Of a stretch of DNA of 64,000 bases, positions 4,012 through 52,730 are shown piece after piece. The translations under genes and the position numbers were made by a program. Every line of letters starts with the position of its first letter. The first letter of the stretch is position 1. The stretch comes from a bacterium HR28 (GTDB lineage Bacteria > Chloroflexota > Chloroflexia > Thermomicrobiales > Thermomicrobiaceae). The DNA lies in assembly GCA_002898255.1 (NCBI GenBank), contig BEIE01000006.1, positions 49,251 to 113,250 on the forward strand, read 5' to 3'. The notes below the pieces were generated by a model, which saw only the letters and a list, made by a program, of their open reading frames with translations, ran no database searches and was not told the origin of the DNA.

Positions 4012-4024
4012 CGTCTTCCCTCCC

Positions 4025-8629: not shown

Positions 8630-8637
8630 CCACATGA

Positions 8638-8664: not shown

Positions 8665-8684
8665 GCTACTGTTAGGGAGAGGCT

Positions 8685-10190
8685 ATGACCGTTCCAGTAC
8701 TCGAAGCGAGGAACATCAGCAAGCGCTTTCCAGGGGTTGTCGCGCTCGAGCGTGTCTCGCTGAGTGTCTTCCCCGGTGAGGTGCTGGCAGTCGTCGGGGA
8801 GAACGGTGCGGGGAAATCGACACTGATGAAGATCCTCTCAGGAGCGCTCCAACCGGACGAAGGGGAGATTCTCCTCGACGGGCAGGTGGTTCGTTTTACT
8901 GACCCGCGCCACGCATTGGCGCGAGGCATCGGAATTATCTACCAGGAACTGAGTGTCATCGATGCATTGTCGGTGGGGGAGAACGTCTTCCTTGGACGCT
9001 TGCCGGAGCGGCCAGGCCTTCGGGGAAGTGTGGACTGGCCGCGTCTGTGGCGAGATGCCGCAAGGGTTCTCGAGCGGGTTGGTGTTCCGATTGATCCACA
9101 GCGACAAGTCCGCGAGTTGAGCGTGGCCCAGAAGCAACTAGTCGAGATCGCACGAGCGCTTTCGCAAGACGTGCGTGTATTGATCCTCGACGAGCCGACG
9201 AGCTCGCTCTCGCTCCAAGAAACAGAGCGGCTGTTTGAAATTCTACGTGGCTTACGCGCACAGGGTGTCGCAATCATCTACATTTCCCACCGCTTGGAGG
9301 AAATCTTCACCCTCGCCGATCGGGTGACGGTGCTGCGTGACGGCCGGGTAGTGGGGACGCTCCCAATCGGCGAGGCGACGCGTGAGGGACTGATTCGAAT
9401 GATGGTCGGTCGTGATCTCTCGGCCTATTACCGGACTGTCCGCTCGAGCCCCGGTGCCGTGCGATTGGAGGTGCGGGGTCTGTGCCGGACTGGTACGCTG
9501 CAGGATGTGAACTTGACGGTACGGGCTGGTGAAATCGTCGGGCTGGCCGGGCTGGTGGGTGCTGGCCGTACAGAGCTCGCGCGTTGCCTCTTTGGGGTCG
9601 ATCCGATCGACACTGGGGAGATCCGCGTCGACGGGCAGGTGGTGACGATTCGGAATCCCCGAGACGCAGTGCGTCATGGGATCGTGTTAGTGCCCGAGGA
9701 TCGCAAGTTGCAAGGACTCGTGCTGATCCTCTCCGTGCGAGAAAATATCACGCTGCCTGTGCTCGAGCGATTGGCACGGCTCGGTTTTCCCTCGCGGCGA
9801 GCAGAGGAGCAAGTCACGCAGTCGTTCGTGGAGCGTCTCCGGATCCGAACGCCGTCGCTTGAGCAGCGCGTGATGAACCTCAGCGGAGGGAACCAGCAGA
9901 AGGTTGTGTTGGCACGCGCGTTGGCGACCAATCCGAAGGTGTTGATCCTCGACGAGCCGACGCGTGGGATCGACGTGGGGGCGAAAGCGGAGGTTCACGC
10001 ACTCATTGCCGAGCTCGCCGAGGCTGGCATGGGGATTCTGCTGATCTCGTCGGAGCTCCCGGAAGTGCTGACCATGAGCCACCGGATCCTCGTCATGAGT
10101 GGGGGCCGGATCGTCGCCGAGTTCTCGCGCGAGGAGGCAACGGAAGAGCGCGTGTTGGCGGCGGCGACGGGACATCCAGTGGCGGCGTGA
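8685..10190 (+). CDS. sugar ABC transporter ATP-binding protein (duplicated ATPase, RbsA-like)
   Basis: Two ABC cassettes: Walker A GENGAGKST, signature LSVAQKQ, then LSGGNQQK in the second half, and Walker B LILDEPT twice. RBS GGGAGAGG lies upstream. Confidence 0.92.
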   Translation: MTVPVLEARNISKRFPGVVALERVSLSVFPGEVLAVVGENGAGKSTLMKILSGALQPDEGEILLDGQVVRFTDPRHALARGIGIIYQELSVIDALSVGENVFLGRLPERPGLRGSVDWPRLWRDAARVLERVGVPIDPQRQVRELSVAQKQLVEIARALSQDVRVLILDEPTSSLSLQETERLFEILRGLRAQGVAIIYISHRLEEIFTLADRVTVLRDGRVVGTLPIGEATREGLIRMMVGRDLSAYYRTVRSSPGAVRLEVRGLCRTGTLQDVNLTVRAGEIVGLAGLVGAGRTELARCLFGVDPIDTGEIRVDGQVVTIRNPRDAVRHGIVLVPEDRKLQGLVLILSVRENITLPVLERLARLGFPSRRAEEQVTQSFVERLRIRTPSLEQRVMNLSGGNQQKVVLARALATNPKVLILDEPTRGIDVGAKAEVHALIAELAEAGMGILLISSELPEVLTMSHRILVMSGGRIVAEFSREEATEERVLAAATGHPVAA

Positions 10191-23815: not shown

Positions 23816-24386
23816 TGGTCTCCTCCTTTCCCACATTCACCAACTCAACCTCCGCCACGTCAGTGTTCGGGAGATCTCCGGGGGTGACGAACAGTGCAGA
23901 GCGAGTGTAGCGCGCAACTCCCTTGCAGCGGGTAGGATGGGGGGATATAAGTACCTGCCCGATTGCACTAAAGAGACCAGTTGGTGAAGGGACTGCTTTG
24001 CGACCGGAGGCTGGCGTGAGCAATCAGCGATACGTCGAGGAGGGTGTTTTCATCGTACCTGTAAACAAGAGGAAAACGCCGTGGAGTAGTTCATTGGCCG
24101 GCCAAAAAGAAACCCGTCAGATTAGGTTCTTCCGAGGTGGGTGAAATTGCTCCGTTCGGAAGCATATGGCCTTGCCAAGGCATGGGACAGGGCCGAACGG
24201 GTGCTCATGAAGACACTCTTCCCGACTGATGAACCAATGGAGACACAAAGCTTTGACTCAAGTGCGTTGCCGTGCTGGTTCTGAAGGCTTATGCTGCGAT
24301 TGCGGAAGAGTCTCGTAAAGGTGAGGTGAAGATCGTCTACTGAGTAGCTGGAGCGCTCGAGGGGACGAGGGCTTGGAGGGGTGGCC

Positions 24387-25541
24387 ATGAAACGAGTTGT
24401 CATCCTCGGTGGAGGATCAGGTGGGGCAGTTGCGGCTAGTCGGCTTGGCAAATGGGCGCGACCGGGCGAGTTTGAGGTTGTGCTGATCGATCGGAGCGAG
24501 TGGCACGACTTTCGCCCGAGTTATCTTTGGGTGGCAGTAGGGAAGCGGGAGCCAGAAGAAATTCGGCGTCCACTGGCGCTCCTGGAGCAGCGCTACGGGA
24601 CGCGCGTGTTCCGGGCGACCGTGACGGGCATTCGGCCGGAAGCGCAGACGGTTGAGACTGACCAAGGGAACGTTGAGTACGATTACCTGATTGTCGCTTT
24701 GGGGGCGGAGTTAGTGGACACACCGGACGTGGCCGGCTGCGAGGCGCCATGGGAGCTTGCGCCAGCGTTGGAGTTGCGTGAACGGCTCCGTACTTTCGCA
24801 GGTGGGCGAGTGGTTGTGGGTCCGCTTTCTTGGCCATATCGTTGTCCGCCAGCGCCATTCGAAGTCGCGTTTATGTTGAAGTACCTTGCAGAACAGCGGG
24901 GAGTTGCGGAGCGCACACAGATCACAGTGTTCCATCCCTGGAAGGAGCCGATGGAGACATTTGGCCCCCAGATGGTGGAGGGGTTTCGCCGATTCCTCGA
25001 CGACTTTGGGGTGCACTTCGAAGGCGGATTTGTCTGCGTGCGGCATGATCCTGACCGAAAGGTGATTGTTGCGGCTGACGGGAGAGAATTGGAGTATGAC
25101 TTCGCGATCATCGTGCCGCACCATCGGGTGCCCGAGGCGGTAAGGAACTCACCGCTGGCTACAGCGGACGGCTACATGGACGTTGTGCTTCCCTCGATGC
25201 GTTCACCTCGCTACGAAACGGTGTGGGGAATCGGTGATGTGGTGGCGCCAACGATCGGGCTTGGTATGGCCGGTGTCTTTGCGCATTTCCAGGCGGAGCA
25301 CGTGGTGAGTCAGATCATTGATCGGGAGCGCGGTGCGTACCTTGGGGAGTTATACAACATGGTTGGCATCTGCGTAATGGACACAGGGTATATGGGTGCG
25401 GCGGTGTGGTGCAACTTCACCGATAAGCTGTTTGGCCGTGCAGCAGTTCCGGATTGCCGATTACTCGGTGGGATGCGGGCTTTTCGGGCGGTCAAAGTTG
25501 GCTTTGAGCGGTACTGGTTCGCGAACCTCTTTGGTCGATAG
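24387..25541 (+). CDS. FAD-dependent pyridine-nucleotide-disulfide oxidoreductase, sulfide:quinone-oxidoreductase-like
   Basis: Rossmann motif KRVVILGGGSGG, SQR/NDH-2-like length and layout, followed by a DUF1641 gene, which is a common pairing. Confidence 0.75.
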   Translation: MKRVVILGGGSGGAVAASRLGKWARPGEFEVVLIDRSEWHDFRPSYLWVAVGKREPEEIRRPLALLEQRYGTRVFRATVTGIRPEAQTVETDQGNVEYDYLIVALGAELVDTPDVAGCEAPWELAPALELRERLRTFAGGRVVVGPLSWPYRCPPAPFEVAFMLKYLAEQRGVAERTQITVFHPWKEPMETFGPQMVEGFRRFLDDFGVHFEGGFVCVRHDPDRKVIVAADGRELEYDFAIIVPHHRVPEAVRNSPLATADGYMDVVLPSMRSPRYETVWGIGDVVAPTIGLGMAGVFAHFQAEHVVSQIIDRERGAYLGELYNMVGICVMDTGYMGAAVWCNFTDKLFGRAAVPDCRLLGGMRAFRAVKVGFERYWFANLFGR

Positions 25542-26933: not shown

Positions 26934-27488
26934 TCACTCAATGCCGTCCGTCGCCGTGGACAAGGTGGCTCGGGAAGATACGTGCTCGCGCTCGAGCAGT
27001 TCCTCGACGAGTCGACGGACGCGCTCGACGGCCAGATCGACCGCCTGCGCGACGCGTTCAGTGAGGCCAATGCTTGCCTCGTCTACCTCGGCTGGTTCGC
27101 AGCCGAGCAGTCTGACAAATGGTGGTAGGACCCCGAGCGCCCGTGCCAGGACGAAGATTTTCCACGGCTCGGCGTAGTGGGTGTCGGCCAGAAAGGCCCG
27201 CCGCTCAGCGTCGGTCCACTCGTCCAGATTGTCGATCTCTGGCTCGAGGAGATAGAGGGTGCCCGGCTCTCCGCCACGTCGAACGGCATCGATCACAATC
27301 AGTGCCTCGTAGCCATCCAGCAGCTCCTGCACTACGGCGATACCACCAGTGCCAGCATCCATCAGCGTGACACCGCGGGGAGGCACTTGCCACTCAGCCA
27401 TAAGCCGCTGAACGACTGCTACTCCAAAACCGTCATCTTGCCGGATGACTGAACCCATCCCAGCGATAAGCACCCGTTTCGAGCTCAT
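26934..27488 (-). CDS. [NiFe]-hydrogenase maturation endopeptidase (HyaD/HupD family)
   Basis: KRVLIAGMGSVIRQDDGFGVAVVQRL...LMDAGTGG...LIVIDAV: canonical layout with conserved Asp and His metal ligands. Confidence 0.85.
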   Translation of the reverse strand: MSSKRVLIAGMGSVIRQDDGFGVAVVQRLMAEWQVPPRGVTLMDAGTGGIAVVQELLDGYEALIVIDAVRRGGEPGTLYLLEPEIDNLDEWTDAERRAFLADTHYAEPWKIFVLARALGVLPPFVRLLGCEPAEVDEASIGLTERVAQAVDLAVERVRRLVEELLEREHVSSRATLSTATDGIE

Positions 27489-28390
27489 GTGTGCACCACC
27501 CGCCGCGGACGGCCGATGATGATCTGCCCATCTTGCACTGCTACTGGCACGACCTCGAGTGATCGGCCGGCGCGATCAAGTCGCCGACCACTGTGCAGGT
27601 CGAACCGGCACCCGTGCCATGGGCAAGTGATAATGCCTTCCTCCCAAGAGATGTCATGTCCCATGCTCAGCGGTAACGGGGTTCCTGGGCAAGCGTTACG
27701 GTAGGCGTAGATGTCGTCACCGCGTCGGACTAGTAACACGGAAAGGCCGCGGGTGTCGATCCGCAGTATCCCAACCTCCGGCACTGTCTCCAGCGAGGCT
27801 ACTGTCTCCCATTCCAGACCCGGTCGCCCCGCGTCCTGGACAGGTACCGACACGCGTCGACGTCCCGGTGGTGCTGGGCGTGGGGCAGGAGAAACCAACT
27901 CGACCTCGAGCCGCTCAAATTCAGGCATGCCCTCGCGGAGCGCCGTCTCCACCACCTGCCGAAGCGTCTGGCCCACGGCAGGGCAACCCGAACAGGCTCC
28001 GCCGAGTTGGATGCGAACCACACCATTCTGCACGCTGAGTACCCGCAGCTCTCCCCCGTGCGAGGCGATGTACGGCTGCACCTCTGCTAAGATCCTGTTG
28101 ACCCTGGCGCGCTGCCCTGCCTCATCGAGTTCGTAGAGCTCCAACAGTAGGCTGACAGCGGGGTCAGCCAGCGTTTCCTGGAAGGCCTGCGGGGCTGCCC
28201 GGTGGAAATGCTGTACTAGCCGTCCGATGCCCACACGGTGGAGCAAGTCAATCAGTTGGAGAAGCCGTAGCGCCTGATCACGCAGTACCGGATCGGGCGC
28301 CGATTCCAAGCTCTGGACGAGCGCGTCGATCTCGGTGAGCGCCTGTTGGAGTCGCCTCGCGATTGTCTCGTCTCGTGGCGCAGTGGCCAT
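27485..28390 (-). CDS. NifU-C-terminal-like / Rieske-like fusion protein (HhyE-like hydrogenase-associated FeS protein)
   Basis: Central NifU-like segment (VQPYIASHGGELRVLSVQNGVVRIQLGGACSGCPAVGQTL) and a C-terminal Rieske-like segment (CPGTPLPL...CPWHGCRFD). This fusion is known next to group 1h/5 hydrogenases. Confidence 0.75.
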   Translation of the reverse strand: MATAPRDETIARRLQQALTEIDALVQSLESAPDPVLRDQALRLLQLIDLLHRVGIGRLVQHFHRAAPQAFQETLADPAVSLLLELYELDEAGQRARVNRILAEVQPYIASHGGELRVLSVQNGVVRIQLGGACSGCPAVGQTLRQVVETALREGMPEFERLEVELVSPAPRPAPPGRRRVSVPVQDAGRPGLEWETVASLETVPEVGILRIDTRGLSVLLVRRGDDIYAYRNACPGTPLPLSMGHDISWEEGIITCPWHGCRFDLHSGRRLDRAGRSLEVVPVAVQDGQIIIGRPRRVVHT

Positions 28391-28420
28391 CGCTCGTAAC
28401 TTTCCGCTCAGACGCCTAGA

Positions 28421-28792
28421 TCAGGCGCCTGGACGATCGGGATGGCTAGGGCACGGCTCACCGGCGTGGGCCGGGTCGTGGCACCAGCATCCAGGGGCGC
28501 ATTCGCCGTGAGCCGGTCGGGTCAGATCGGCGAAGGCATCGCGGAAGCGCACAGCCCCTTCCCGCCTGCCCTGCTCCGTCAGGCGATACCGGCCGTGCTC
28601 ACAGGTCAGGTCACCGCTCGCGACTAGGCGGTCGAGGTGAACCTGGATCAGGTCGACGTCAGAGACAAGAAAGCGTGCCAACTCCGCAGCGTCGACATCC
28701 TCCGCCAGTCCCTCGCCGCACATCCAGTACATCGCCTCCAAGATCTCATCTCTCCAGAAGAGATTGTCGAGCGCGCTCGATCCGCTCGTCAT
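28421..28792 (-). CDS. hydrogenase-locus conserved hypothetical protein with a Cys/His-rich C-terminus
   Basis: 123-aa ORF ending ...HGECAPGCWCHDPAHAGEPCPSHPDRPGA. Tightly packed between hydrogenase accessory genes. Confidence 0.6.
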   Translation of the reverse strand: MTSGSSALDNLFWRDEILEAMYWMCGEGLAEDVDAAELARFLVSDVDLIQVHLDRLVASGDLTCEHGRYRLTEQGRREGAVRFRDAFADLTRPAHGECAPGCWCHDPAHAGEPCPSHPDRPGA

Positions 28793-28803
28793 CGACCTGA
28801 CTC

Positions 28804-29433
28804 CTACGTCTCCGTCGTGGCTAGCACCTGCTGGATCAGTGCGCGGACGCGCCGCTCTGCCTCATCGAGCGCAGCTTCACCAAGCGCGCTGAAGCCGTCT
28901 CCCCAGGACTGGTCGAACGGTTCAATCTCAACGACTATCACCTCGTCTGGCAGCGCACCAAAATGGTCCAGGATCAACAAGAGATTTTCGAGATCAATGA
29001 CGCCCGTGACAGCCTCACTCACCCGGCTCTGCAGCTCGTCCGGAGTAACCATGGGCGGATTCCAGGGCATCACCATAACGCTTCCGGGCGGGCGCCCCCG
29101 CGGCACCGCACCGACGAAGATGCCTCGCGAGAAGCGCGGCACCGCCTGGAGCTGGAATAGCACATCGATCGGGCTGTAACTCAGGTCAGCGATGACCACG
29201 CCCGCGGGCCACTGGTCGCTCTGCAACCGGGTCACCAGCGCTGGACCGAGCGAGAGGTCGCGCAGGTTGGTATAGCCGATCCCCGCCACAAGTACCCGCT
29301 GTTCCCCAGGGGACCGTTGCTGCTCGGTGACATCGCGCTGGTGCTTCGTCCTCGGCTGTAGACGAGCATGGCTCGGCCACAGCCACCCTGATAGTGGATC
29401 GATGATTCGTTCAACCTGATGATGATCCGTCAT
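28804..29433 (-). CDS. second hydrogenase endopeptidase-like protein (divergent HupD paralogue)
   Basis: RVLVAGIGYTNLRDLSLGPALVTRL...VVIADLSYSPIDVLFQL... resembles HyaD/HupD but carries an N-terminal extension of about 45 aa and divergent ligand positions. Confidence 0.65.
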   Translation of the reverse strand: MTDHHQVERIIDPLSGWLWPSHARLQPRTKHQRDVTEQQRSPGEQRVLVAGIGYTNLRDLSLGPALVTRLQSDQWPAGVVIADLSYSPIDVLFQLQAVPRFSRGIFVGAVPRGRPPGSVMVMPWNPPMVTPDELQSRVSEAVTGVIDLENLLLILDHFGALPDEVIVVEIEPFDQSWGDGFSALGEAALDEAERRVRALIQQVLATTET

Positions 29434-29444
29434 CCGGTCGTCCC

Positions 29445-31316
29445 TTATTCCTCCAGGATACAGGCGCAGGTGTTCACCTCACGCACCACGACCCGCTCGC
29501 CTGCAAAGACGTGCGTCGTGCAGGGCATGCAGGGGTCGAAGCTCCGGATTGCGCGCAGAATGTCGATAGCCTTGAAGTCCTCCGGGCTATTGAACTGCTC
29601 GATGATCGGCGTGTTCAGCACTGCCTCCTCGTACGGTCCCGGGTTTCCCCACGGATCACGCGGGGAGGCATTGATGGTCGACGGGGTGATGATCTGGTAG
29701 TTGGTCAGCACCCCGTTGTCCATCGTCAGGTGATGGGTCAGGTAACCGCGACCGGCACCCCAGAAGCCAACGCCGATCCGGAAGTCACGCGGCACAGTGA
29801 AGTCGCGGCTCACCGCCGTGTTGCCTTGCTTCATCAGCTCGTAGCCGATGAGTAGGTTGTTCAGGGCGACCAGAGCCGTGTACGCTTCGGCATACGCCCG
29901 CGCGCGGTTGCGCTCGATCGCGTTCCAGTCGGCTGGAATGTGCCACTCGAGGGTCATCTCGGGCAGGCGTCCCTTGGGTACCAGCATGCGCAGGCTCTGG
30001 CCAGTGGACTCGATGAAGGGGTTCTCCGGGATCTTCTTGGCCGCTGCCGTCGTCCACATGCGCACGTAGACGCCGGCCTCCATGACCGTGCGGTCCCAGC
30101 GCGGTGTGCAGGCCCAGGTGTACTTCTCCTTCCAGCTTCGGCCGGTCGGCTTGGGGCGAGTCTGCTTGTTCCAGGGATGGTAGGGGCTCAGCGGGTTACC
30201 GACCGGATCAGTCTTCAGCGGGTAGTCGTTCCAGTCATCGTAGTAGGAGTGTTCGACGAACTCTTCCAAACCAGCGTTGAGCAGATGGAGATTCGTCGTG
30301 ACGAGCTCGCCGTCGCGGACAACGCCCGGCGTATTCCATCGGCGCTCGCCCCAGTGGTCGGCGTGTCGGTAGTCGGCATCGTACGCCTCGTGGTGATCCC
30401 AGATTCCCGCATCGATCAGGTTCTTCGGACGGGCGCCGACCTGACGGAAGCGTGGCTCGATCTCGTAGAGGAAGTTGAAGACATCGTCCCACAGCAGCGC
30501 CATCTTCTTGGAGTAGTCAAGCAGGTCAAACAGACGCACCTGGTATTCATTGAGGACTCTCATCGAGATCGTTGTGCTGATCCCACCGGGCACAATTGTC
30601 TGCGGGTGGGGGTACTTGCCCCAAACCAGCACCGTCATCTCGCGTGCCTTGCGCGTCATCTCCAGGGCTTCGAGGTAGAGCGAACCAGTCAACGGGTTCA
30701 GCGCCGTCATGATCTCACCGATCGTCTTGAACCCGTGAACATCCGCGTTCGGGGCCAACGCGGTCTGGGCGCGCTCCCAGATCTCCGGGTTCGTCGCGCG
30801 GATCACCGTTTCGGAGTAGTCTGGTCCGGCGAGCAGGAAGAGGTGCAACGGATGGTCGTAGAGGAACTCAGCTGTCTGCCCCAGGTTGCGCACGACGATC
30901 CCCATCGGGGGCGGCGGTGTTCCGAAAGCCATCTCGATCGCCTCGGCTGAGCAGTTCGCGTGCACACCCCCGCACACGCCGCAAGCCCGGCTGCTGATGA
31001 AGATCGCATCGCGCGGATCGCGTCCCTTGAGGATCACCTCGTAGCCGCGGAATAGTGTCGCCATCGAGTGCGCATCGAGGACTTTGCGGTTCTCCAGATC
31101 CACGACGGCATGGAAAGCGAGTGCCCCCGCCACGCGAGTGACCGGATCGATGCTCACCTCGTGAATGTGGCCGTTGCGACGCAAGAGCTCCTCGATCCGC
31201 TCTTGTTGAGTCGCTACGGTCTTGGTCGAAGTGTAGGCATATGGGTCGCGAATATCGCTTCGCAGGCGGGCCCTGCCTGACTCGTCGAACTCGATCGGCA
31301 GATTCTTGAAGCACAT
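29445..31316 (-). CDS. hhyL: [NiFe]-hydrogenase large subunit, group 1h/5-like
   Basis: N-terminal RACGVCGGVH and C-terminal SFDPCMPCTTH Ni-Fe ligand motifs, followed by a short C-terminal extension. All four ligand Cys are ordinary Cys codons. Confidence 0.92.
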   Translation of the reverse strand: MCFKNLPIEFDESGRARLRSDIRDPYAYTSTKTVATQQERIEELLRRNGHIHEVSIDPVTRVAGALAFHAVVDLENRKVLDAHSMATLFRGYEVILKGRDPRDAIFISSRACGVCGGVHANCSAEAIEMAFGTPPPPMGIVVRNLGQTAEFLYDHPLHLFLLAGPDYSETVIRATNPEIWERAQTALAPNADVHGFKTIGEIMTALNPLTGSLYLEALEMTRKAREMTVLVWGKYPHPQTIVPGGISTTISMRVLNEYQVRLFDLLDYSKKMALLWDDVFNFLYEIEPRFRQVGARPKNLIDAGIWDHHEAYDADYRHADHWGERRWNTPGVVRDGELVTTNLHLLNAGLEEFVEHSYYDDWNDYPLKTDPVGNPLSPYHPWNKQTRPKPTGRSWKEKYTWACTPRWDRTVMEAGVYVRMWTTAAAKKIPENPFIESTGQSLRMLVPKGRLPEMTLEWHIPADWNAIERNRARAYAEAYTALVALNNLLIGYELMKQGNTAVSRDFTVPRDFRIGVGFWGAGRGYLTHHLTMDNGVLTNYQIITPSTINASPRDPWGNPGPYEEAVLNTPIIEQFNSPEDFKAIDILRAIRSFDPCMPCTTHVFAGERVVVREVNTCACILEE

Positions 31317-31333: not shown

Positions 31334-31633
31334 CTAGGTCCTCTCGGTCGCTCTCCCCGTCGTTAGTCGCGCGAGCTGCTCATCGAGCCGCCGCAGCTCA
31401 TTGGCCAGTACCGTGCCAGAGGCCACTATGGACTCAAGACCACGCTGCAGCGGCGGGAGCTGGGCTTGCAGCAGTGAGGTTTGCCGCTCGATTGCGGCGA
31501 CACCCCAGACAATCTTCGAGGCGGTTCCGTGGATACGCTCAAGCGCCTGCCGTATACGACTCAGCGCGTAGGCCAGCACGACGAGGAAGAGCAGGAAAAG
31601 TGCGCTAGAGAGCAGGGTGAGCAGCAGGACCAT
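31334..31633 (-). CDS. small single-pass membrane protein, paralogue 4 of 4
   Basis: 99 aa: an N-terminal hydrophobic helix (MVLLLTLLSSALFLLFLVVLAYAL), then a helical or coiled-coil-like tail. It lies 17 nt upstream of hhyL. Confidence 0.6.
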   Translation of the reverse strand: MVLLLTLLSSALFLLFLVVLAYALSRIRQALERIHGTASKIVWGVAAIERQTSLLQAQLPPLQRGLESIVASGTVLANELRRLDEQLARLTTGRATERT

Positions 31634-31645
31634 CAGTCAACTCCT

Positions 31646-31936
31646 TCAGCTTACGAGCCCCAAGGAACGAAGCTTCACCCCGAGTGAGGCGGCGATACGC
31701 TCGATCTCGGCGACGGCCACGCCGAGTTGATCAGCCGCTGCAACCACTGCCGGCATCGTGGAAAGCGCATGAGCGTGGCGACCGATTCCTTCGATGGAGA
31801 CAAGTGCCTCACGGGCCAGATGATCGATCACCCGCAAGTGCGCGATGACTCGGAGTACCAAGAGTAGAGCAATGATGGTGGTGATGAGAGCCACCAGGAG
31901 CGCCACGATCCAGACAATAACCGCGAGCACGAGCAT
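31646..31936 (-). CDS. small single-pass membrane protein, paralogue 3 of 4
   Basis: 96 aa with the same architecture (MLVLAVIVWIVALLVALITTIIALLLVLRV...). There is a 12-nt gap to the next gene. Confidence 0.6.
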   Translation of the reverse strand: MLVLAVIVWIVALLVALITTIIALLLVLRVIAHLRVIDHLAREALVSIEGIGRHAHALSTMPAVVAAADQLGVAVAEIERIAASLGVKLRSLGLVS

Positions 31937-31947
31937 TGTTCAACTCC

Positions 31948-32250
31948 TCAGGCAACCTGCGAGCGCTCAACCACCTCAGGCGCACCGACGGGTGCAGCCC
32001 CAAGATGCTCGGCCGTCCGATCGAGTGATTCCGCCACTGCTGTCAGATCTTTGTGGACTCGCTCGAGCTGGACGTTCAGGTCGGTCGTTGCGGTTTCTAC
32101 AGCTCGCATGAGCGTGGCAATCTGAGCAAACGTTCCACCGATTCTGCGGAGGTAAAAGAGAATAGTCAGCAGCGCTACGGTCAGGACCAGCACCAGGACG
32201 ACAGCGTAGACAGCGGTGATCACAGCCAGGACGCGAACGAGCGTTTCCAT
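31948..32250 (-). CDS. small single-pass membrane protein, paralogue 2 of 4
   Basis: 100 aa with the same architecture (VLAVITAVYAVVLVLVLTVALLTILFYLRRI...). There is an 11-nt gap to the next gene. Confidence 0.6.
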   Translation of the reverse strand: METLVRVLAVITAVYAVVLVLVLTVALLTILFYLRRIGGTFAQIATLMRAVETATTDLNVQLERVHKDLTAVAESLDRTAEHLGAAPVGAPEVVERSQVA

Positions 32251-32259
32251 AGTCCCTCC

Positions 32260-32550
32260 TCAGCGCTGCTGTGCCCGCTCCAGCCGCTCGTTGAGCGTGC
32301 GGGCGGCCTCAGCGATCGCGTCGAGCCGGTTGAGAATCCGAGTTGCGACCTGGTTTGTCTGAGCGAGCAGGGGGATGCTTGTCGTGTTCGCTGCAATCCC
32401 CTTACCGGCCTGCCAGATAGCCGCGGCGTGCCGGTCGATCCGCTCGACTGCTCGCCAAATGGCGATGAGCAGGATCGCGACAACGAGTACCACGACCAGC
32501 GCGATCGCCAGGACGAGCCACCAGAAAGCGGTTACGGTCATCTCCGGCAT
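32260..32550 (-). CDS. small single-pass membrane protein, paralogue 1 of 4
   Basis: About 96 aa counted from ATG 32548-32550 (MPEMTVTAFWWLVLAIALVVVLVVAILLIAIWRAV...). The ORF-track start at 32574 is a TTG. Lies immediately downstream of hhyS. Confidence 0.6.
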   Translation of the reverse strand: MPEMTVTAFWWLVLAIALVVVLVVAILLIAIWRAVERIDRHAAAIWQAGKGIAANTTSIPLLAQTNQVATRILNRLDAIAEAARTLNERLERAQQR

Positions 32551-32579
32551 CACGATCCCCTCTCGAGTTACCAAGTGCC

Positions 32580-33806
32580 CTATTCAGGCTTTGCTGATGA
32601 GCCACGCCAGCGCAGCCGGTTGTAGAAAAACTCCACAGTTCGCTCGATGATCGGCACGTCGTACTCAGCGCCCCAACCGCTCGGGATCGCTCGCTGACGG
32701 TCCCAGCGCGTCTCACGGTTGCGGTCGCGCTGGGTGATACGGCGCAGCGGGCGGATGAACGAACCATTGAGTCGTGAGACTGTGCTTGAGAGGGTTGATC
32801 CTGGAGGGGCCTTATAGAACGGCGAGAACTTGTCCGGGAAACCGGGCATGGTGCAGCCGATGCAGGGTCCCCCGACATTCATGCAGCCACCGAGGCCGTT
32901 GATGGCCCCGCGACTGGTGATGTTGCAGTTGACGACTGGTCCCCAACAGCCGATCTCGACCAGGCACTCCGGGTCGCCGTAATGCTCAGCGAAGACACCT
33001 TCCTCGTAGTATCCGGCGCGGGTGCACTGCCGGTGCACCGTCTCGCCGAAGAGCCAGGCTGGACGGCCCAACTCGTCGAACTCTGGCACCGGGCCGAGGC
33101 CTTGCAGGAAGAGGAGCACTGCGGCCACAGTCTCGGTGAAGTTATCGCCCACCGGAGCGCAGCCGGGGATGTTGATGACCGGCAGGCCGAGTGCACTGCG
33201 GTAGTCGCGACCCAGGAAGTCCATCACACTCATCGCTCCGGTGGCGTTGTGGTAGGCGGACGGGATCCCACCCCAGGTCGCGCAGGTACCGATCGCGATA
33301 ACCGCGGCCGCACCGGGTGCCAGCCGCTTCAACCAAACTGCGGATGGTACTTGCTTGAATTGGCCGGTCTGCTCATCGAACTCCTCACCGACAGCCGACC
33401 AGTATCCTTCACCGGCTCGTGTTTCGTCCGGCACCGAGCCCTCGTAGACGATCACATAAGGGGCACCGAGCGTACCCTCGAGCGCCCGCTGCATCGGCTC
33501 GACGAAGGGGTCACCAGACTCCACATTGACCGCTGAGTGATGGAGCAAGATCTGGGGCAGGCCAGGTAACGACCCCATAAGGAGATCTTCGACCCGTGGC
33601 GCTACCGCGCCCAGCACAGAGATGGTGCACCCGTCGCAGCTCATCCCAGCGAGCCAGAAGACGTGGACGTGGGTATACGGGCCAAGCAGGCTGTCGCGTC
33701 CCAGTTGTTCCCGGGCGAGGCGCTGGATCTCCTCGGTCGTCGCCCCGGCGACGTTACCGACCATGCCAAGCTTCGGACGCACCTTCGGCTTCACGTCGAT
33801 GGCCAT
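32580..33806 (-). CDS. hhyS: [NiFe]-hydrogenase small subunit, group 1h/5-like (no Tat signal)
   Basis: FWLAGMSCDGCTIS, GTCATWGGIP, IPGCAP, and a distal cluster region (CWGPVVNCN...GGPCIGCTMPGFPD). The N-terminus lacks an RRxF motif. RBS AAGGAG is present. Confidence 0.92.
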   Translation of the reverse strand: MAIDVKPKVRPKLGMVGNVAGATTEEIQRLAREQLGRDSLLGPYTHVHVFWLAGMSCDGCTISVLGAVAPRVEDLLMGSLPGLPQILLHHSAVNVESGDPFVEPMQRALEGTLGAPYVIVYEGSVPDETRAGEGYWSAVGEEFDEQTGQFKQVPSAVWLKRLAPGAAAVIAIGTCATWGGIPSAYHNATGAMSVMDFLGRDYRSALGLPVINIPGCAPVGDNFTETVAAVLLFLQGLGPVPEFDELGRPAWLFGETVHRQCTRAGYYEEGVFAEHYGDPECLVEIGCWGPVVNCNITSRGAINGLGGCMNVGGPCIGCTMPGFPDKFSPFYKAPPGSTLSSTVSRLNGSFIRPLRRITQRDRNRETRWDRQRAIPSGWGAEYDVPIIERTVEFFYNRLRWRGSSAKPE

Positions 33807-34611
33807 TGTGAGTCTCCTTCTTCAGCAGGGTTCTGCCATTCTCTAGGATGTGCTCTGTCAGTTTTGCGATCGCGCGCACCGCTGGTGCAGTCGGCATGTA
33901 GTCGAGGAGCGCGCGGCCGAGTCGGTCGGCTTCCTGAACCGCCTCGTCGAAGGGGATCGATCCGATCACGCTCACGTCGAGGCGAGCGCAATAGTCGCGG
34001 ATCGCAGCTTCATCCTCTGGTGATCGCACCTTGTTGGCCACGACACCGATGCACCCAATACCGAGCTCGCGGGCGAGGGGCACAATCCGGCCGAGGGTCT
34101 CCAGTGCCCGGAAGTACGGTTCGACTACGACGAGCAGCATATCGACGTGACGCACAGTTCCCCGGCTCAGATGCTCGATCGAAGCCTCCATATCGAGAAT
34201 GGTGACGTCCTCGGGACGGAGCGTGCCGAGTTCGGCTACCACGCCGCGCACGGCGGCGTGCTGCCCACACAGTCAGCCGCGGCCGGCGCCGAGCAGGCCA
34301 GTCATTGCCAAGACGCGGACACCGTCCGGGCCGATCACACCGTAGCGCGTGATAATCTCCTCGAACGGGCAGATCAGATGGAGGGAGGCGTGACCATCAC
34401 TGTCCACTCGTTCCTCGAGGATCTCCTCGCGCGGCACCCGCCGGAGCTGCTCGATCTGCTCCGTGGACAGACCAAGTGCCCGCGCGAGGTTCGGGTTCGG
34501 GTCGTCGTCCAGGGCGTTAACCGAGTACCCGCGCTGTGCGGCCAGCCGAGCCATCGTCGCAGCGAGCGTCGTCTTCCCAGCTCCGCCTTTGCCCGCGACG
34601 GCAATCCGCAT
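33754..34611 (-). CDS. CooC/MinD-type P-loop ATPase (Ni-insertion-factor-like), candidate selenoprotein (in-frame TGA at 34273-34275)
   Basis: ATG 34609-34611 follows GGAGG. MRIAVAGKGGAGKTTLAA (deviant Walker A) ...LLGAGRG-TGA-LCGQHAAVRGVV...ILDMEASIEHLSRGTVRHVDMLLVVVEP... The two track ORFs (34273..34668 and 33754..34251) are in the same frame and together rebuild one CooC-like protein. The TGA aligns with the first Cys of the CooC C-x-C metal motif (I recall GGSQCYCRENSF in C. hydrogenoformans CooC1). The 3' end overlaps hhyS by 53 nt. Confidence 0.65.
34240..34260 (-). promoter_or_regulatory. SECIS-like hairpin downstream of the in-frame UGA
   Basis: mRNA sense CACGCCGC-CGUGC-GCGGCGUG: an 8-bp perfect stem with a 5-nt loop, starting 12 nt after the UGA. 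Confidence 0.5.
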
Positions 34612-34902
34612 GTTGCCTCCTTTTAAAGGTGCCGATCGTTCGACTCCAGCACGGCATTGGGGACTCAAGGGAAATTACTTTCCGGTATGCCGGAGAGGTC
34701 TAGGGTATCGAGACGATCGGCTGGTGTACACGACTTATCGCGTCATCCGGCGTGTGTTCCCATTATAATTCGTCGAGTAGAAAAAGGTCAAGGAGGTCGT
34801 GGGAAACTTCCTATCCCGGAAAAGCTGGCAAAGAGATAACCTCAGAGGATTGAGCGCTAACGAAGAAAGTCATATGTGAATCACAACCTGGGCCGGCGCG
34901 AG

Positions 34903-35379: not shown

Positions 35380-37179
35380 TTACTCACTGCTGAGCGCAGT
35401 CTTCCTAACCTGTTCGGGGTCGCCCTTCCACCACATCCACGTTCCAGGCTCACCATCGAGGACGATTTCGGCCCCCGGCTCCAGTTCCCCAGCGAGCAAT
35501 GCGCGGGCAATTGGGTCCAGCACTTCACGATCGATGAGTCGCCGGAGTGGGCGCGCACCGAGCTCGCGGTCGTGCCCGGCGCGCGCGAGAGCGCTGCGGG
35601 CGCTTGGGGACAGACGTACCCTGACTCCCCAGAGACTGAGGCGCTGCTGCGCCCGCTCGAGCTGGAGGTCGACGATTTGCTCCATCGCCTCAAGGGAAAG
35701 TGGAGCGAAGAGGACGATATCGTCCAGGCGGTTGAGTAACTCGGGGCGAAAGAGTCGGCGAGCGTAGGAGAGGAACACTTCCGGCGCTCGTTCACCGGCT
35801 CCGATTGCTTCCTGAGATCCGGCGTTGGAAGTAAGCACAATCAGTGTGTTGTGAAAGTCGACCGTACGGCCATATCCGTCGGTGAGGCGGCCGTCCTCGA
35901 GGATCTGGAGCAGAAGGTTCAGTACATCGGGATGTGCTTTCTCGGCTTCGTCGAAGAGGACCACCGAGAAGGGGCGTCGCAAGACCGGATCGGTCAACTG
36001 GCCTGGCAGCCCGAAGCCAACGTATCCAGGTGGAGCACCAATCAAGCGGGCTACGGCGTGCCGCTCCATGTATTCACTCATATCTATGCGGATCAGCGAC
36101 TCTTCGTCGCCGAAGAGAAACTCGGCGAGGGCTCGAGCGAGCTCGGTTTTCCCGACACCGGTTGGACCGATAAAGAGGAACGAGCCGAGCGGACGGCGTG
36201 GGTCACCGAGGCCGGTGCGTGCCCGCCGGAGGGCTCTGGCGACGGCGCGGATCGCTGGTTCCTGGCCGACCACACGCCTGGCAAGAGCACTTTCGATCTC
36301 CAGCCAGTGACGTTCGCCACCGGAGCCGGGGGAGAGCATGTCCAATCCGCTGAGCGGTAACCCTGTGCGCAGCGCAACTGCCTCAAGTAGGCGGTTGCGC
36401 CCCACTACCGTCTCGCCATCGAGGTGTGCCAGCGCGGCTGCATGATCGAGGATCTGGAGGGCGCTGCCGGGTAGCACGTGTGCGCGCAGAAAGCGCTGGG
36501 CCAGTTGAATGGCCAGGCGCAGCGCTTCAGGCGCGAATTCCACTTGATGGTGCGCTTGCAACCGTGGCAGGTGAGCCCGTAACACGGCCTCGCAGGCTGC
36601 CTCGTCCCAGGCTGGCATCTCGATGACCTGGACCAGCATGTCCCAATTAGGAATGGACTGCGTGAGGCGTGCTGCCTGTTCGGGGGTGAGTGGCAGGACG
36701 ATTCCTCCCGCATTCAGGAGTGCGCGAAGGGCGATGTTGCCAGAGGTCGCGTCACTGTTGCTCAGACCGAGCAACTCGGCCCCTTCGAGGACGACGACCA
36801 GGCGGCCAGACCCGGCAGCAATCTCTCGGCTAAGCTGCTCTGCACGTTGCTCGAGTTCGCCACGGTAACGGGCACCGGAGACGAGACGGGCGACATCAAT
36901 CCAGAAGACCTGGTAATTGAGGAGCTCGGCTGGGGCATCACGGTGCGCGATCGCTTGGGCCAGCGCTCGCAGCGCGCTGCGTCTGCCGGAGCCAGGAGGT
37001 CCGACCAACGCGACGTTCCCTTTGAACGTGCTGCGGAGTGCGGCCGTGAGGCGCCTGGTCAGCTCGTGCCGTTGGACGAGAGGTTGTGGCTGAGCGAGCA
37101 ATGCTCTGGTGAGATCGTAGCCGTAACGGGCGAGTTCATTCCAGCGTGCCCAACCAGACCCATTCCCTCTTCGCACCAT
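35380..37179 (-). CDS. Clp/Hsp100-family AAA+ ATPase with a degenerate first nucleotide-binding domain
   Basis: D2 is canonical (FLFIGPTGVGKTELARALA, VVLFDEAEKAHPDV, sensor/arginine GARPLRR). D1 has GPPGSGRRS in place of GxxGxGK[ST] and VVVLEGAE in place of hhhhDE. No ClpN or M-domain is evident. Its ATG abuts the stop of the upstream gene (TGAATG). Confidence 0.85.
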   Translation of the reverse strand: MVRRGNGSGWARWNELARYGYDLTRALLAQPQPLVQRHELTRRLTAALRSTFKGNVALVGPPGSGRRSALRALAQAIAHRDAPAELLNYQVFWIDVARLVSGARYRGELEQRAEQLSREIAAGSGRLVVVLEGAELLGLSNSDATSGNIALRALLNAGGIVLPLTPEQAARLTQSIPNWDMLVQVIEMPAWDEAACEAVLRAHLPRLQAHHQVEFAPEALRLAIQLAQRFLRAHVLPGSALQILDHAAALAHLDGETVVGRNRLLEAVALRTGLPLSGLDMLSPGSGGERHWLEIESALARRVVGQEPAIRAVARALRRARTGLGDPRRPLGSFLFIGPTGVGKTELARALAEFLFGDEESLIRIDMSEYMERHAVARLIGAPPGYVGFGLPGQLTDPVLRRPFSVVLFDEAEKAHPDVLNLLLQILEDGRLTDGYGRTVDFHNTLIVLTSNAGSQEAIGAGERAPEVFLSYARRLFRPELLNRLDDIVLFAPLSLEAMEQIVDLQLERAQQRLSLWGVRVRLSPSARSALARAGHDRELGARPLRRLIDREVLDPIARALLAGELEPGAEIVLDGEPGTWMWWKGDPEQVRKTALSSE

Positions 37180-48229: not shown

Positions 48230-48931
48230 GTGGTGATTGTGCGGATTGGTGCAGTTGTGCTTGCTGGAGGGCGTTCGGAGCGTTTGGGCCGACCGAAGCA
48301 GCTCTTGCCGTGGGATAGCCGGACGCTGATCGAGACGGTCATTGACGAGGTGTGTCGAACGCCGAGCCTGACGGCGGTTGTGGTGGTCCTGCGCCCCGAG
48401 GTTGCGGAGCAATTGGGTGTGCAGCCAGGTGAGTCACTCGGTTGTGCGCGCGTGGCGCTGCCGGAGACCGAGGGTGAGGGGTGCGCTGCATCGTACCGGA
48501 GCGGGTTAACGGCACTGGAGGACTCCAGGCTGGACGGCGTCGTGATTGTGCTAGGGGACCAACCAGGACTTAGGGCAGAGACGATTGAGCGGGTAGTGAA
48601 GGTTTGGTCTGAGTCAGGTGCGCCGCTCGCGGCGACGCGGTACCGGGATGGGGAGGGACATCCGCTCGTCTTTGGGAAGGAGCTGTTCGGGGAACTGGTA
48701 GCCCTCCGCGGGGAGAAGGCGGCGTGGAAACTGGTGGATCGGTACCGAGATCGGGTGCTGTGGGTGGAATTCGACGAGCCAATGCCACGAGACATCGATA
48801 CGGAAGAGGACTATCGAGCCGTACGGGAGGCCTGGGAGGGCCGAGCCCGCACGGAGGGGCATCTCCTTACCCGGTTGCCGGAACGTGAGAAGGGAGGGGT
48901 CGGTGACAGGCGAGAAGGAACCGCGGAGTGA
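48230..48931 (+). CDS. mocA: MobA-like NTP transferase, molybdenum cofactor cytidylyltransferase (MocA-like)
   Basis: GAVVLAGGRSERLGRPKQLLPW... is the nucleotidyltransferase signature. MCD cofactor is required by the coxL-type enzyme encoded 2.4 kb downstream. Confidence 0.75.
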   Translation: MVIVRIGAVVLAGGRSERLGRPKQLLPWDSRTLIETVIDEVCRTPSLTAVVVVLRPEVAEQLGVQPGESLGCARVALPETEGEGCAASYRSGLTALEDSRLDGVVIVLGDQPGLRAETIERVVKVWSESGAPLAATRYRDGEGHPLVFGKELFGELVALRGEKAAWKLVDRYRDRVLWVEFDEPMPRDIDTEEDYRAVREAWEGRARTEGHLLTRLPEREKGGVGDRREGTAE

Positions 48932-50900: not shown

Positions 50901-51337
50901 GCGGACGCTAGGTGCGGCGGGTAGGATCACCGCCTCATTGTGTGATTCTCGCTGTGTTGCGCGCCAGCGCTGGTGACGACCGGTATCGTCAGGCACTGTG
51001 TCGCACGCGGGAAGAGGAAGATTCGACGCGAGACACTGAGAGGGCTAGTACACTTATGCGTCCCCACCCTGCGCCTTGAGACGCTGACCTCCTCCGATCC
51101 GGTGATCTTACCCTCCGAACGGAGGGTGAGAAGACCACTGATCGGACTGTTTCCCACTTGGCGCCTGCCTGTTACACTCCTCTGGTGAGAAGAGGAACCC
51201 AGTAACACAGTTGTGGCCGAGCCCTGAAGGTGACGTGCGCCTCTGGCACGCTGGCCGATCATATGTCGGCCCGGCTGGTGGCTGCGCTCGGGAGCGCGAG
51301 GAAACGGCGATCGATCCGGAACGAAAGGAGCCGAACG

Positions 51338-52213
51338 ATGATTCCGGGGCCATTCCGGTACCGCAGGGTTCGCTCCGTGGACGAGGCTGTTGCACTGCTC
51401 TCCCAACTGGGAACCGACGCGAAGGTTTTGAGTGGGGGGCAGAGTTTGATCCCGATGATGAAGTTTCGGCTTGCTGAGCCGAGCTATCTTATTGACATCA
51501 ATCCGATTCCTGGGCTCGACTTCATTGAGGAGCGCGACGGGATGCTCCGTCTCGGCGCGCTGGTTCGGGAGTCCACGCTTGAGCGCTCGTCGCTCGTGCG
51601 TCAACGCTATCCCATCCTGCATGACACGGCTGAGGTGATCGCGGACCCGCTTGTCCGCAATCTGGCGACAGTCGGCGGTAACTTGGCCCATGGCGATCCA
51701 GCGAATGATCATCCGGCAACGATGCTCGCACTGCGCGCGCAGGTGGTCGCGCGCGGACCGAACGGAGAGCGTGTCATCCCGATCGATGACTTCTTCGTTG
51801 ACACGTTCGTGACAGCGCTGCAACCGGACGAGCTCCTAACGGAGATTCGCATCCCGGCCCCACCGCCGCGATCGGGCGGAGCGTACCTCAAGTTTGAGCG
51901 CAAGGTCGGAGACTATGCGATCGCCGCAGCAGCGGTGTTCCTCGCGCTTGACGAGGCTAGGCGGATCACACAGGCCGGCATCGGGCTCACAAATCTGGCT
52001 TACAAGCCGTTGCGAGCAGTTGATGCAGAGCGTGCGCTGCTTGGCCAGCAACCAAGTGAGGAACTCTTCCGACATGCCGCGGAACTCGCGGCCCAGGCGA
52101 CCGATCCAGTCAGCGACTTGCGCGGGCCAGCGGACTATAAGCGTGCAGTTGCTCGGACGATGACGCTGCGCGCATTGCGCCGGGCTCTGGAACGCGCTCA
52201 GGCGAATGCCTGA
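51338..52213 (+). CDS. coxM: aerobic CO dehydrogenase medium (FAD-binding) subunit
   Basis: ATG 51338 follows AAAGGAG. MIPGPFRYRRVRSVDEAVALL...LSGGQSLIPMMKFR is an FAD_binding_5 domain. Gene order is M-S-L. Confidence 0.9.
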   Translation: MIPGPFRYRRVRSVDEAVALLSQLGTDAKVLSGGQSLIPMMKFRLAEPSYLIDINPIPGLDFIEERDGMLRLGALVRESTLERSSLVRQRYPILHDTAEVIADPLVRNLATVGGNLAHGDPANDHPATMLALRAQVVARGPNGERVIPIDDFFVDTFVTALQPDELLTEIRIPAPPPRSGGAYLKFERKVGDYAIAAAAVFLALDEARRITQAGIGLTNLAYKPLRAVDAERALLGQQPSEELFRHAAELAAQATDPVSDLRGPADYKRAVARTMTLRALRRALERAQANA

Positions 52214-52225
52214 AAGGGGGAAAAG

Positions 52226-52726
52226 GTGGAAACGTTGCCGATCCAGGTAACAGTGAATAGCCGTACCTATACTGCCGAGGTCGAGCCTCGGTTGCTGCTC
52301 GTGCACTTCCTGCGCGACGTGCTGAATCTGACCGGAACGCACATCGGTTGCGATACGACGAGTTGCGGCGCTTGCACGGTGCTCTGGAACGGTCGGCCGG
52401 TAAAGTCTTGCACGGTCTTCGCGGTGCAGGTTGACGGTGGCGAAATCCTCACCGTCGAGGGTTTGGAGCGCGACGGACAGTTGCATCCGGTGCAAGAGGG
52501 CTTCTGGGAAGAGCATGGGCTGCAGTGTGGCTTCTGCACGCCCGGGATGATGATGACCGCTGTCGCACTACTCAACGAGAATCCGGATCCAACGGAAGAA
52601 GAGATCCGCAAGGCCATTTCCGGCAATCTCTGTCGGTGTACCGGGTACGTCAACATCGTCAAAGCCATCCAGTATGCAGCCCGGAAGCTGCGCGAGGGCG
52701 CGACCGTCCATGTGGGAGGAGCGTGA
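52226..52726 (+). CDS. coxS: aerobic CO dehydrogenase small ([2Fe-2S]) subunit
   Basis: Has [11 protein letters not shown] and [11 protein letters not shown] cluster motifs. Confidence 0.92.
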
Positions 52727-52730
52727 AGCA

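Follow-up and report, generated by a model that had tools for sequence, protein, structure and literature searches.

A probable selenocysteine in the metal-site motif of a CooC-type ATPase encoded at the head of a NiFe-hydrogenase operon

We analyzed a stretch of 64,000 nt from bacterium HR28 (Chloroflexota, Thermomicrobiaceae; GenBank assembly GCA_002898255.1, contig BEIE01000006.1, positions 49,251 to 113,250), hereafter referred to as the window. The first gene of a NiFe-hydrogenase operon in this window encodes a CooC-like ATPase of the MinD class, and its reading frame has a single interruption on translation, a TGA at codon 113 in the context L-L-G-A-G-R-G-(TGA)-L-C-G-Q-H. The gene and the features associated with it are listed below in window coordinates.

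34762..34791 (-): sigma-70-like promoter match TTGACC-18-TATAAT (11/12), about 150 nt upstream of the ATG; consensus scan only
34616..34622 (-): Shine-Dalgarno sequence AAGGAGG 5' of the ATG at 34611, by sequence reading
34611..33754 (-): CooC-like MinD-class ATPase gene, first of the operon, 285 codons including UGA113; translation, Pfam and Protein Data Bank (PDB) match
34570..34593 (-): deviant Walker A motif G-K-G-G-A-G-K-T, residues 7-14, read from the translation and nearly invariant in the family alignment
34275..34273 (-): in-frame TGA, codon 113, first position of a U-x-C motif and proposed selenocysteine (Sec, U); aligns to Cys112 of CooC1
34267..34269 (-): Cys115, second Cys of U-x-C, Cys in all 177 aligned sequences
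34267..34232 (-): stem-loop resembling a selenocysteine insertion sequence (SECIS) element, bulged lower stem included; folding and comparison

Pfam assigned the encoded protein to the CbiA/MinD/ParA superfamily, with similarity to the NifH and NUBPL families as well, and no NCBIfam model, selenoprotein models included, reached its cut-off. When the PDB sequences were searched with phmmer, the top match was CooC1 (3KJE; E 1.7e-32, 116 bits, 29% identity) and the runner-up was an archaeal MinD (MinD-1, 59 bits). In a gap-free block of the CooC1 alignment, the TGA fell on Cys112 and Cys115 on Cys114 of the CooC1 motif Cys112-Tyr-Cys114. In the family alignment, Cys115 was directly followed by a conserved G-Q-H, of which His118 was nearly invariant. 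An AlphaFold (AF2) model had a mean predicted local distance difference test (pLDDT) score of 87.7 with 3KJE as the top Foldseek match, and its confidence was low only in the C-terminal tail and in the motif loop 106-113, as expected of the latter because the site would form only on dimerization. By these matches in sequence and predicted fold, the gene was shown to be a member of the CooC-type metallochaperone ATPase family, the predicted protein being nearer to CooC than to MinD, ParA, NifH, Mrp or ArsA. An earlier note on this DNA had called the protein a CooC-type ATPase with UGA at the first Cys of its C-x-C site, and both assignments were borne out.

The family alignment comprised 177 sequences. 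The best 120 database homologues came from Chloroflexota and Dormibacterota and were 45-69% identical to the window protein, nearly all of them being full-length at approximately 260-275 residues. Cys occupied the TGA column in 117/117 full-length homologues, and a Cys two residues on was present in 177/177 sequences. The only near-identical entry among the best 120 (P0025) was a 165-aa gene-finder call covering the C-terminal half; its contig, independently deposited, had the same TGA and a single difference from the window in 2806 bases. We then scanned public collections at the DNA level with the degenerate pattern G-A-x-x-G-TGA-[ILM]-C-G-Q-H, which matched the window once against 0 matches expected from 100 shuffles. 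Of the 94 stretches that the scan yielded, 27 belonged to species-representative genomes and 67 to metagenomes; 10/94 were chance matches, and an in-frame TGA was thus found in 84 cooC-like genes, 23 from species-representative genomes and 61 from metagenome contigs. These genes, hereafter called Sec forms after the predicted decoding, were 57-100% identical to the window protein over approximately 255 residues. Their frame was open for at least 112 codons 5' of the TGA and for approximately 150 on its 3' side. The 23 representative genomes included Thermomicrobiales, Thermomicrobiaceae, other Chloroflexota, Ktedonobacterales, Chloroflexia, a Rubrobacter and an Armatimonadota. The nearest relatives of the window protein were from 'Bacterium HR26' (94%) and a metagenome-assembled genome (MAG) of Thermomicrobiaceae (90%), and a copy in a JGI contig of 717 kb (L037) was essentially identical to it.

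No frameshift or second stop was found among the 63 full-length TGA copies, for which the ratio of nonsynonymous to synonymous polymorphism (pN/pS) was 0.39 over 27 codons before the TGA and 0.33 over 100 codons after it. In the codons right after the TGA, third positions varied freely with the amino acids fixed. Because relatives conserve the TGA and purifying selection acts equally on the two halves, both of them open, we excluded decay, sequencing error and a truncated product; the gene is therefore not the decaying pseudogene that the earlier note had considered as an alternative. TGA also serves as the ordinary stop for many genes of the window, one of them within the hydrogenase operon, and the genetic code is thus not reassigned. 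Other in-frame TGA junctions in the window (1657-4287, 27485-28861, 51206-52726 and others) were plain gene boundaries that gave no further selenoproteins. On the family tree, the Sec forms lay in approximately four blocks among the Cys forms, with approximately six state changes by parsimony; such interleaving of predicted Sec and Cys forms is the usual picture of dynamic Sec/Cys exchange.

The stem-loop downstream of the UGA has an upper stem of CACGCCGC and GCGGCGUG closed by the loop CGUGC (34260..34240, reverse strand). The hairpin starts 13 nt and its loop 20 nt 3' of the UGA, and the loop GU lies at nt 25-26 counted from the U of UGA. In the bacterial SECIS consensus, the apical loop lies 16-37 nt after the UGA with a G in the first loop positions, and the loop GU of Escherichia coli fdhF is at nt 23-24; the criteria of Zhang and Gladyshev from 2005 reportedly consist of a stem-loop shortly 3' of the UGA with G/U in its apical loop. 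Both the position and the loop of the predicted hairpin fit this consensus. G25 and U26 were invariant in 66 distinct 48-nt Sec sequences, and all five core base pairs were formed in 66/70 distinct Sec sequences, whereas the six Cys orthologues with available DNA formed only 2-4 of the five. Pair 22-30 was G-C in 47, A-U in 17, G-U in 1 and unpaired in 1 of the Sec sequences; the switch involves an Ala-to-Thr change on one arm and a synonymous Arg-codon change on the other, and its state changed at several places on a neighbor-joining tree. Rfam scans, both at the gathering threshold and with E up to 10, matched no SECIS family; in our judgement, Rfam is not expected to model bacterial SECIS elements well, and this result weighs little.

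In seven loci (L045, L051, L058, L064, L074, L076 and L082), a Cys paralogue with 47-51% identity and the motif C-L-C-G-E-H-I-T-V-R-D-M was found approximately 1 kb upstream of the Sec copy, for example at 4958-5719 and 6706-7470 of L064. At the same place as in the Sec copies, the Cys paralogue has a perfect, A+U-rich hairpin, CAUAUCAC-UGUGC-GUGAUAUG, in which three pairs differ from those of the Sec copies at both of their bases. This hairpin may be a fossil SECIS element, a hairpin that preceded Sec and made a TGY-to-TGA change immediately decodable, or part of a Sec/Cys backup pair.

Taking the conservation of the TGA, the Cys homologues and the covarying hairpin together, we regard it as very likely that UGA113 is recoded and, with only slightly less assurance, that it is recoded as Sec, in support of the possible Sec decoding that the earlier note had put forward.

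The remaining genes of the operon follow the cooC-like gene on the same strand.

33806..32580 (-): NiFe-hydrogenase small subunit, 408 aa; Pfam Oxidored_q6 and NiFe_hyd_SSU_C, best PDB match 5AA5 HofK
32574..31334 (-): four open reading frames (ORFs; 104, 100, 96 and 99 aa) with one N-terminal transmembrane (TM) helix each, between the subunit genes
31316..29445 (-): NiFe-hydrogenase large subunit, 623 aa; Pfam NiFeSe_Hases
29433..28804 (-): conserved protein of about 200 aa, 3' of the large subunit; no Pfam match, homologues in related loci by tblastn
28795..28424 (-): conserved protein, about 125 aa, C-terminus rich in Cys and His; weak HTH_20 matches in its L097 and L098 counterparts
28420..27485 (-): NifU-Rieske fusion, HylE/HhyE-like; Pfam NifU and Rieske
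27488..26934 (-): HycI-type maturation endopeptidase, last gene of the operon; Pfam HycI, E 1.3e-18

The cooC-like and small-subunit genes overlap by 53 nt, and the overlap is real because the small-subunit ATG at 33806 has its own Shine-Dalgarno sequence, AAGGAG, 8 nt upstream. No promoter-like or terminator-like site was found between the two genes by a consensus scan. No hypA-F genes were found in the 64 kb by Pfam on large ORFs and an N-terminal motif scan for HypA and HypC, nor was there a HypC-like ORF downstream of the HycI gene in the window. The claims that the cooC-like gene comes first in the operon with a 53-nt overlap, and that the locus has no hyp genes, were thus confirmed from the start sites with their Shine-Dalgarno sequences and from the scans of the whole window, respectively. 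Genes of the hyp set that are missing at the locus could still be present elsewhere in the genome, and no replacement of HypA/HypB is inferred from this negative.

In the large subunit, Cys and not Sec is present in the C-terminal D-P-C-M-P-C, and all four Ni/Fe ligand positions are Cys. The four TM ORFs are conserved in related loci. The conserved protein at 28804-29433 starts with V-L-V-A-G-I-G-Y-T-N-L-R-D, which is reminiscent of the N-terminus of a hydrogenase endopeptidase, and from this it may be a degenerate protease-like assembly factor. We dropped the region 28804-29478 as a protease proper, since it has no Pfam match and the actual HycI protease is at 26934-27488.

Both hydrogenase subunits had the group 1h structure 5AA5 as their best match, and the large subunit was approximately 45% identical to HofG of 5AA5. 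Assignment by this identity is ambiguous, the criterion for group 1l being less than 40% identity to 1h, and gene order and the proximal-cluster ligand were used in its place. The L1 and L2 motifs of the window protein (RACGVCGGVH and DPCMPCTTH) presumably differ from the 1h consensus. At small-subunit residues 57-60, the N-terminal proximal-cluster motif is C-D-G-C, as opposed to C-D-G-D in HofK, which by its sequence would imply an all-Cys proximal cluster, unlike group 1h. In its published description, group 1l (Hyl) has five short TM ORFs (HylTM) between the subunit genes, a Rieske-type protein and an endopeptidase (bioRxiv 10.1101/2020.08.06.239558). A 'key substitution' in a proximal Fe-S cluster ligand relative to 1h is also reported for group 1l. 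The window operon matches this description in its four TM ORFs, NifU-Rieske fusion and HycI, and its C-D-G-C would be consistent with the 'key substitution'. Groups 1h and 1m have their two subunit genes side by side (PMC9561532), whereas those of the window are separated by 1.2 kb with four ORFs. On account of the TM ORFs, the Rieske protein, the endopeptidase, the non-adjacent subunit genes and C-D-G-C, the hydrogenase looks like group 1l-type rather than the group 1h-like enzyme that had been proposed, the published group 1l description being the better fit.

The association of the cooC-like gene with hydrogenase genes was also seen in relatives. Of the 84 Sec loci, at least 45 had hydrogenase genes within the available DNA, with the cooC-like gene immediately upstream of the small-subunit gene in approximately 32 and after the NifU-Rieske gene in a few. 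All seven Cys homologues that were looked up lay in hydrogenase clusters. In five of these, the small-subunit gene directly followed the cooC-like gene, which in three of the five came after a PadR gene. A typical Cys locus consisted of cooC, the small subunit, 4-5 short ORFs and the large subunit, with NifU-Rieske, HycI, HypC and DUF6390 further on. In the four Cys loci with long flanks, no hypA/B/D/E/F was found within approximately 20 kb, and no cooS or acs genes were found in the window or the related loci. The relation between cooC-like and hydrogenase genes that the earlier note had drawn from a single operon is thus upheld in Sec and Cys loci alike.

Transporter genes were a further recurrent neighbor. 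A transporter of the SBP_bac_5 type, which belongs to the peptide/nickel ABC family, was adjacent to the cooC-like gene in 5/7 Cys loci, and in L053, representing one Sec clade, genes for an SBP_bac_5 binding protein and two permeases separate the cooC-like gene from the small-subunit gene (5961-9935). The same three genes follow the cooC-like gene in L072 (7168-10926), where a cation diffusion facilitator (CDF) efflux gene and a ChrB-like gene lie upstream of it, and they adjoin the cooC-like gene also in L096, L097, L099 and L101. No ATP-binding cassette (ABC) ATPase genes were seen beside these SBP_bac_5 and permease genes.

Several other arrangements were observed in these loci and in the window. 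In hydrogenase clusters of Dormibacterota and Chloroflexota, a pair of CbiA-family genes encoding 246 and 103 aa overlaps by 4 nt (L102:3512-4560), and in a hydrogenase cluster on the contig of P0074, a CbiA fragment of 99 aa with an ORF of 126 aa after it might be another interrupted ATPase gene. In L101 (2846-8503), genes for the large and small subunits of RuBisCO, a CbbX-like AAA protein, fructose-bisphosphatase, phosphoribulokinase and LysR lie directly upstream of PadR, cooC (Cys form) and hydrogenase genes, an arrangement that fits hydrogen-driven CO2 fixation in a relative. In the window, a ClpB-like AAA+ protein of 599 aa is encoded upstream of the cooC-like gene (35380-37179, reverse strand), and this neighborhood is kept in L009, L037 and L050; with a normal ClpB having about 860 aa, this protein may be a shortened chaperone or represent a family of its own. 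On the forward strand, coxM/coxS/coxL-like genes for a molybdenum hydroxylase of the aerobic CO-dehydrogenase type (51230-55076) are found with a MobA-like nucleotidyltransferase gene nearby (48230-48931), and the window organism may oxidize both H2 and CO. Also on the forward strand are genes for a sulfide:quinone-reductase-like flavoprotein (24381-25541) and a chlorite-dismutase-family, HemQ-like protein (62601-63392), both unrelated to the cooC-like gene.

Taken as a whole, we consider it probable that the gene encodes a Sec-containing CooC-type metallochaperone for the maturation of a group 1l-type, O2-tolerant uptake NiFe-hydrogenase. By analogy with CooC1, its function would be the delivery of nickel to the hydrogenase, a part of the explanation that we favor with more reserve. 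UGA113 would be read as Sec by SelB and Sec-tRNA, directed by the SECIS hairpin inside the coding sequence. As in CooC1, ATP binding would close a homodimer, in which the two G-U-L-C-G-Q-H loops could form one interface metal site with 2 Se and 2 S donors, His118 being a possible further ligand. This site may hold the metal, which we infer to be Ni(II), until ATP hydrolysis opens the dimer and hands it to the presumed client, the apo large subunit. Any advantage of selenium is a matter of speculation, for instance that a softer ligand of lower pKa would resist irreversible over-oxidation and keep an exposed nickel site working in an aerobe; equally speculatively, the tandem Cys and Sec paralogues might be a selenium-dependent backup, as with methanococcal hydrogenases.

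A number of points weigh against this explanation. The scan pattern demanded C-G-Q-H after the TGA, and the conservation of those four codons was thereby pre-selected; conservation beyond them is independent of the pattern. The folding energy of the hairpin is unexceptional for a G+C-rich sequence (z = 0.11 against dinucleotide shuffles), and for this reason the hairpin argument rests on comparison. Because the hairpin of the Cys paralogue is equally good, a hairpin by itself is no proof of recoding or of a SECIS element. Regarding the cargo, peptide binders and NikA/NikZ scored about equally against the SBP_bac_5 protein, for which an assignment to nickel was accordingly dropped, and the nickel specificity of the ATPase itself is putative; related P-loop ATPases deliver Fe-S clusters. 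Finally, no selA, selB, selC or selD was found in the window or in approximately 0.8 Mb of related loci, as searched by tblastn with E. coli SelA, SelB and SelD queries and by ARAGORN for tRNA-Sec. On the last point, Thermomicrobium roseum, Sphaerobacter thermophilus, Nitrolancetus hollandicus, Ktedonobacter racemifer and Rubrobacter xylanophilus are all listed as having SelD, SelA and SelB (PMC5029168 Tables S1 and S2) with 5-9 predicted selenoproteins each (PMC5029168), and tRNA-Sec is present in R. xylanophilus (PMC5330540). The clades with the TGA form are thus known Sec users, and we infer the decoding capacity of the window organism from these relatives.

The rival explanations, ranked by their remaining plausibility, are that the ATPase has a different cargo or role, that the UGA is decoded as Cys or Trp, that the gene is split, and that it is a pseudogene. 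The first would keep the Sec-containing P-loop ATPase and give it a job other than nickel, either delivery of Fe-S clusters to the small subunit in the manner of Mrp, NBP35 or NifH, or positioning of the membrane-tethered hydrogenase complex in the manner of MinD. The overlap with the gene for the small subunit, whose proximal-cluster ligands differ from 1h, is in keeping with such a role, as are the similarity to the NifH and NUBPL families in Pfam, the NifU-like genes in the operon and an adjacent binding protein that is not clearly nickel-specific. However, the best match in both sequence and fold is CooC1 and not Mrp, NifH or MinD, and the C-x-C is in the CooC position, which sets it apart from Mrp/NBP35 with their C-x-x-C and from NifH, whose two Cys are separated. 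The linkage to SBP_bac_5 transporters, the CDF efflux gene in L072 and the earlier annotation of the equivalent group 1m gene as a CooC-type nickel-insertion ATPase (PMC9561532) point in the same direction, and we judge a non-nickel role to be unlikely.

Readthrough of UGA113 as an amino acid other than Sec, either Cys through a selC-like opal tRNA-Cys or Trp through near-cognate suppression, has a precedent in bacterial opal-decoding selC* tRNA-Cys recognized by SelB-like factors (PMC5389517). The described selC* cases are deltaproteobacterial or from Nitrospirae, however, whereas the cultured relatives of the carriers have complete SelA/SelB/SelD and several selenoproteins, and repeated switching from TGY to TGA would bring no benefit if the product still had Cys; this kind of readthrough therefore appears quite improbable. 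Still less probable is a functional split gene, in which translation would stop at the UGA and restart at an internal GTG (Val121 or Val124), the two polypeptides would assemble and the hairpin would serve reinitiation or pausing. In-frame GTG codons do lie 22 and 31 nt after the TGA, one of which is used by gene callers, and the hairpin of the Cys paralogue at the same place leaves room for a role unrelated to Sec. Against this, the internal GTGs have no Shine-Dalgarno sequence before them, the lost L-C-G-Q-H-A-A would include the Cys115 that is invariant in 177 sequences and the nearly invariant His118, the halves are in one frame in every copy, and the replaced residue is a metal-ligand Cys, the classic Sec/Cys signature. 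A nonsense mutation or sequencing error, leaving a pseudogene, a 112-residue fragment or nothing useful, would take only one base from TGY to TGA and would agree with the split gene calls such as P0025 and with the nearest full-length relatives being all Cys, but it is scarcely credible given the same TGA in an independent contig and in 84 genes down to 57% identity, the 0/63 full-length copies with a frameshift or second stop, downstream purifying selection equal to upstream, and fixed amino acids with freely varying third positions after the TGA.

Beyond the probable Sec-containing metallochaperone, a further-reaching version would make the ATPase the dedicated nickel insertase of group 1l-type hydrogenases that oxidize atmospheric H2, doing the job of HypA/HypB in these aerobes, with a mixed Se/S site that handles nickel under O2 and a motif region that is intrinsically hairpin-forming. 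We hold this version to be doubtful as a whole; if it were true, a region in which TGY to TGA is at once decodable would explain both the approximately six Cys/Sec switches and the tandem paralogues, the latter then serving as a selenium-dependent backup pair.

The closest known system is CooC1 of Carboxydothermus hydrogenoformans (3KJE/3KJG/3KJH/3KJI), the nickel-insertion ATPase for anaerobic CO dehydrogenase. The window protein has the same fold, size and deviant Walker A motif, with C-x-C in the same loop and, presumably, an interfacial metal site. It differs in the proposed Sec at the first position and in the following G-Q-H with its nearly invariant His, compared with R-E-N in CooC1. 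Its genetic partner is an aerobic uptake NiFe-hydrogenase in place of cooS/acsB; CO dehydrogenase genes in the window are limited to the molybdenum-type coxMSL. The carriers of the gene are aerobic or facultative Chloroflexota of soil and hot springs. HypB, which works with HypA, is a GTPase of the G3E family and has a C-H motif. HypB and the CooC-type ATPases are both SIMIBI NTPases with a nucleotide-dependent dimer that bridges a metal through Cys, and HypB would share both client and task with the window protein. The latter is an ATPase of the MinD/CooC class, however, and hypA/hypB were found neither in the window nor in approximately 20 kb around four Cys orthologues. NiFeSe-hydrogenases and the methanococcal Sec/Cys isoenzymes offer parallels in a Se ligand to nickel, in H2 metabolism and in coexisting Sec and Cys versions, but in the window the Sec would sit in the proposed chaperone, with the large subunit of the enzyme all Cys.

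Group 1m clusters of Actinobacteriota contain CooC-type genes annotated as 'Ni insertion ATPase/GTPase' (Ray et al. 2022, PMC9561532), and they resemble the window operon in having such a gene in a high-affinity hydrogenase cluster alongside genes for Fe-S assembly and for a maturation peptidase. The subunit genes of these clusters lie next to each other, neither Sec nor an in-frame UGA is mentioned (PMC9561532), and the likeness drawn here is one of annotation. The link between CooC and hydrogenases is therefore already known, as an annotation, for group 1m (PMC9561532), and we found none reported for group 1l-type clusters of Chloroflexota. For Sec in the metal motif of a metallochaperone-type P-loop NTPase, one precedent is listed, the CobW-related (COG0523) selenoprotein NF041053 with U-x-x-C; it is a G3E GTPase with a different motif, found in two organisms (PMC5029168), and has no hydrogenase link. 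ATPases of the CooC, MinD or ParA type are absent from the selenoprotein family table of 2016 and from the May 2026 inventory of 119 prokaryotic selenoprotein families (PMC13188914). A targeted full-text literature search found no report of a CooC-type selenoprotein; one apparent hit for CooC with selenocysteine (PMC5424206) was rejected, the matched word being 'Cooccurrence'. Sec in a CooC-type ATPase thus appears to be unreported.

The window protein therefore appears to be the first metallochaperone of the MinD/CooC class with Sec in its metal site. Gene callers split or shorten the cooC-like gene in dozens of genomes, and as a result hydrogenase clusters in public MAGs are mis-annotated at that point. 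To our knowledge, the selenoproteins of these organisms have received little attention so far. A new prokaryotic selenoprotein family of this kind would be widespread in aerobic soil and hot-spring Chloroflexota and would also extend to Rubrobacter and Armatimonadota. It would be a testable candidate for the nickel supply of the most abundant hydrogenases that scavenge atmospheric H2, and its natural Sec/Cys pairs would be available for probing the part of selenium in metal trafficking under oxygen.

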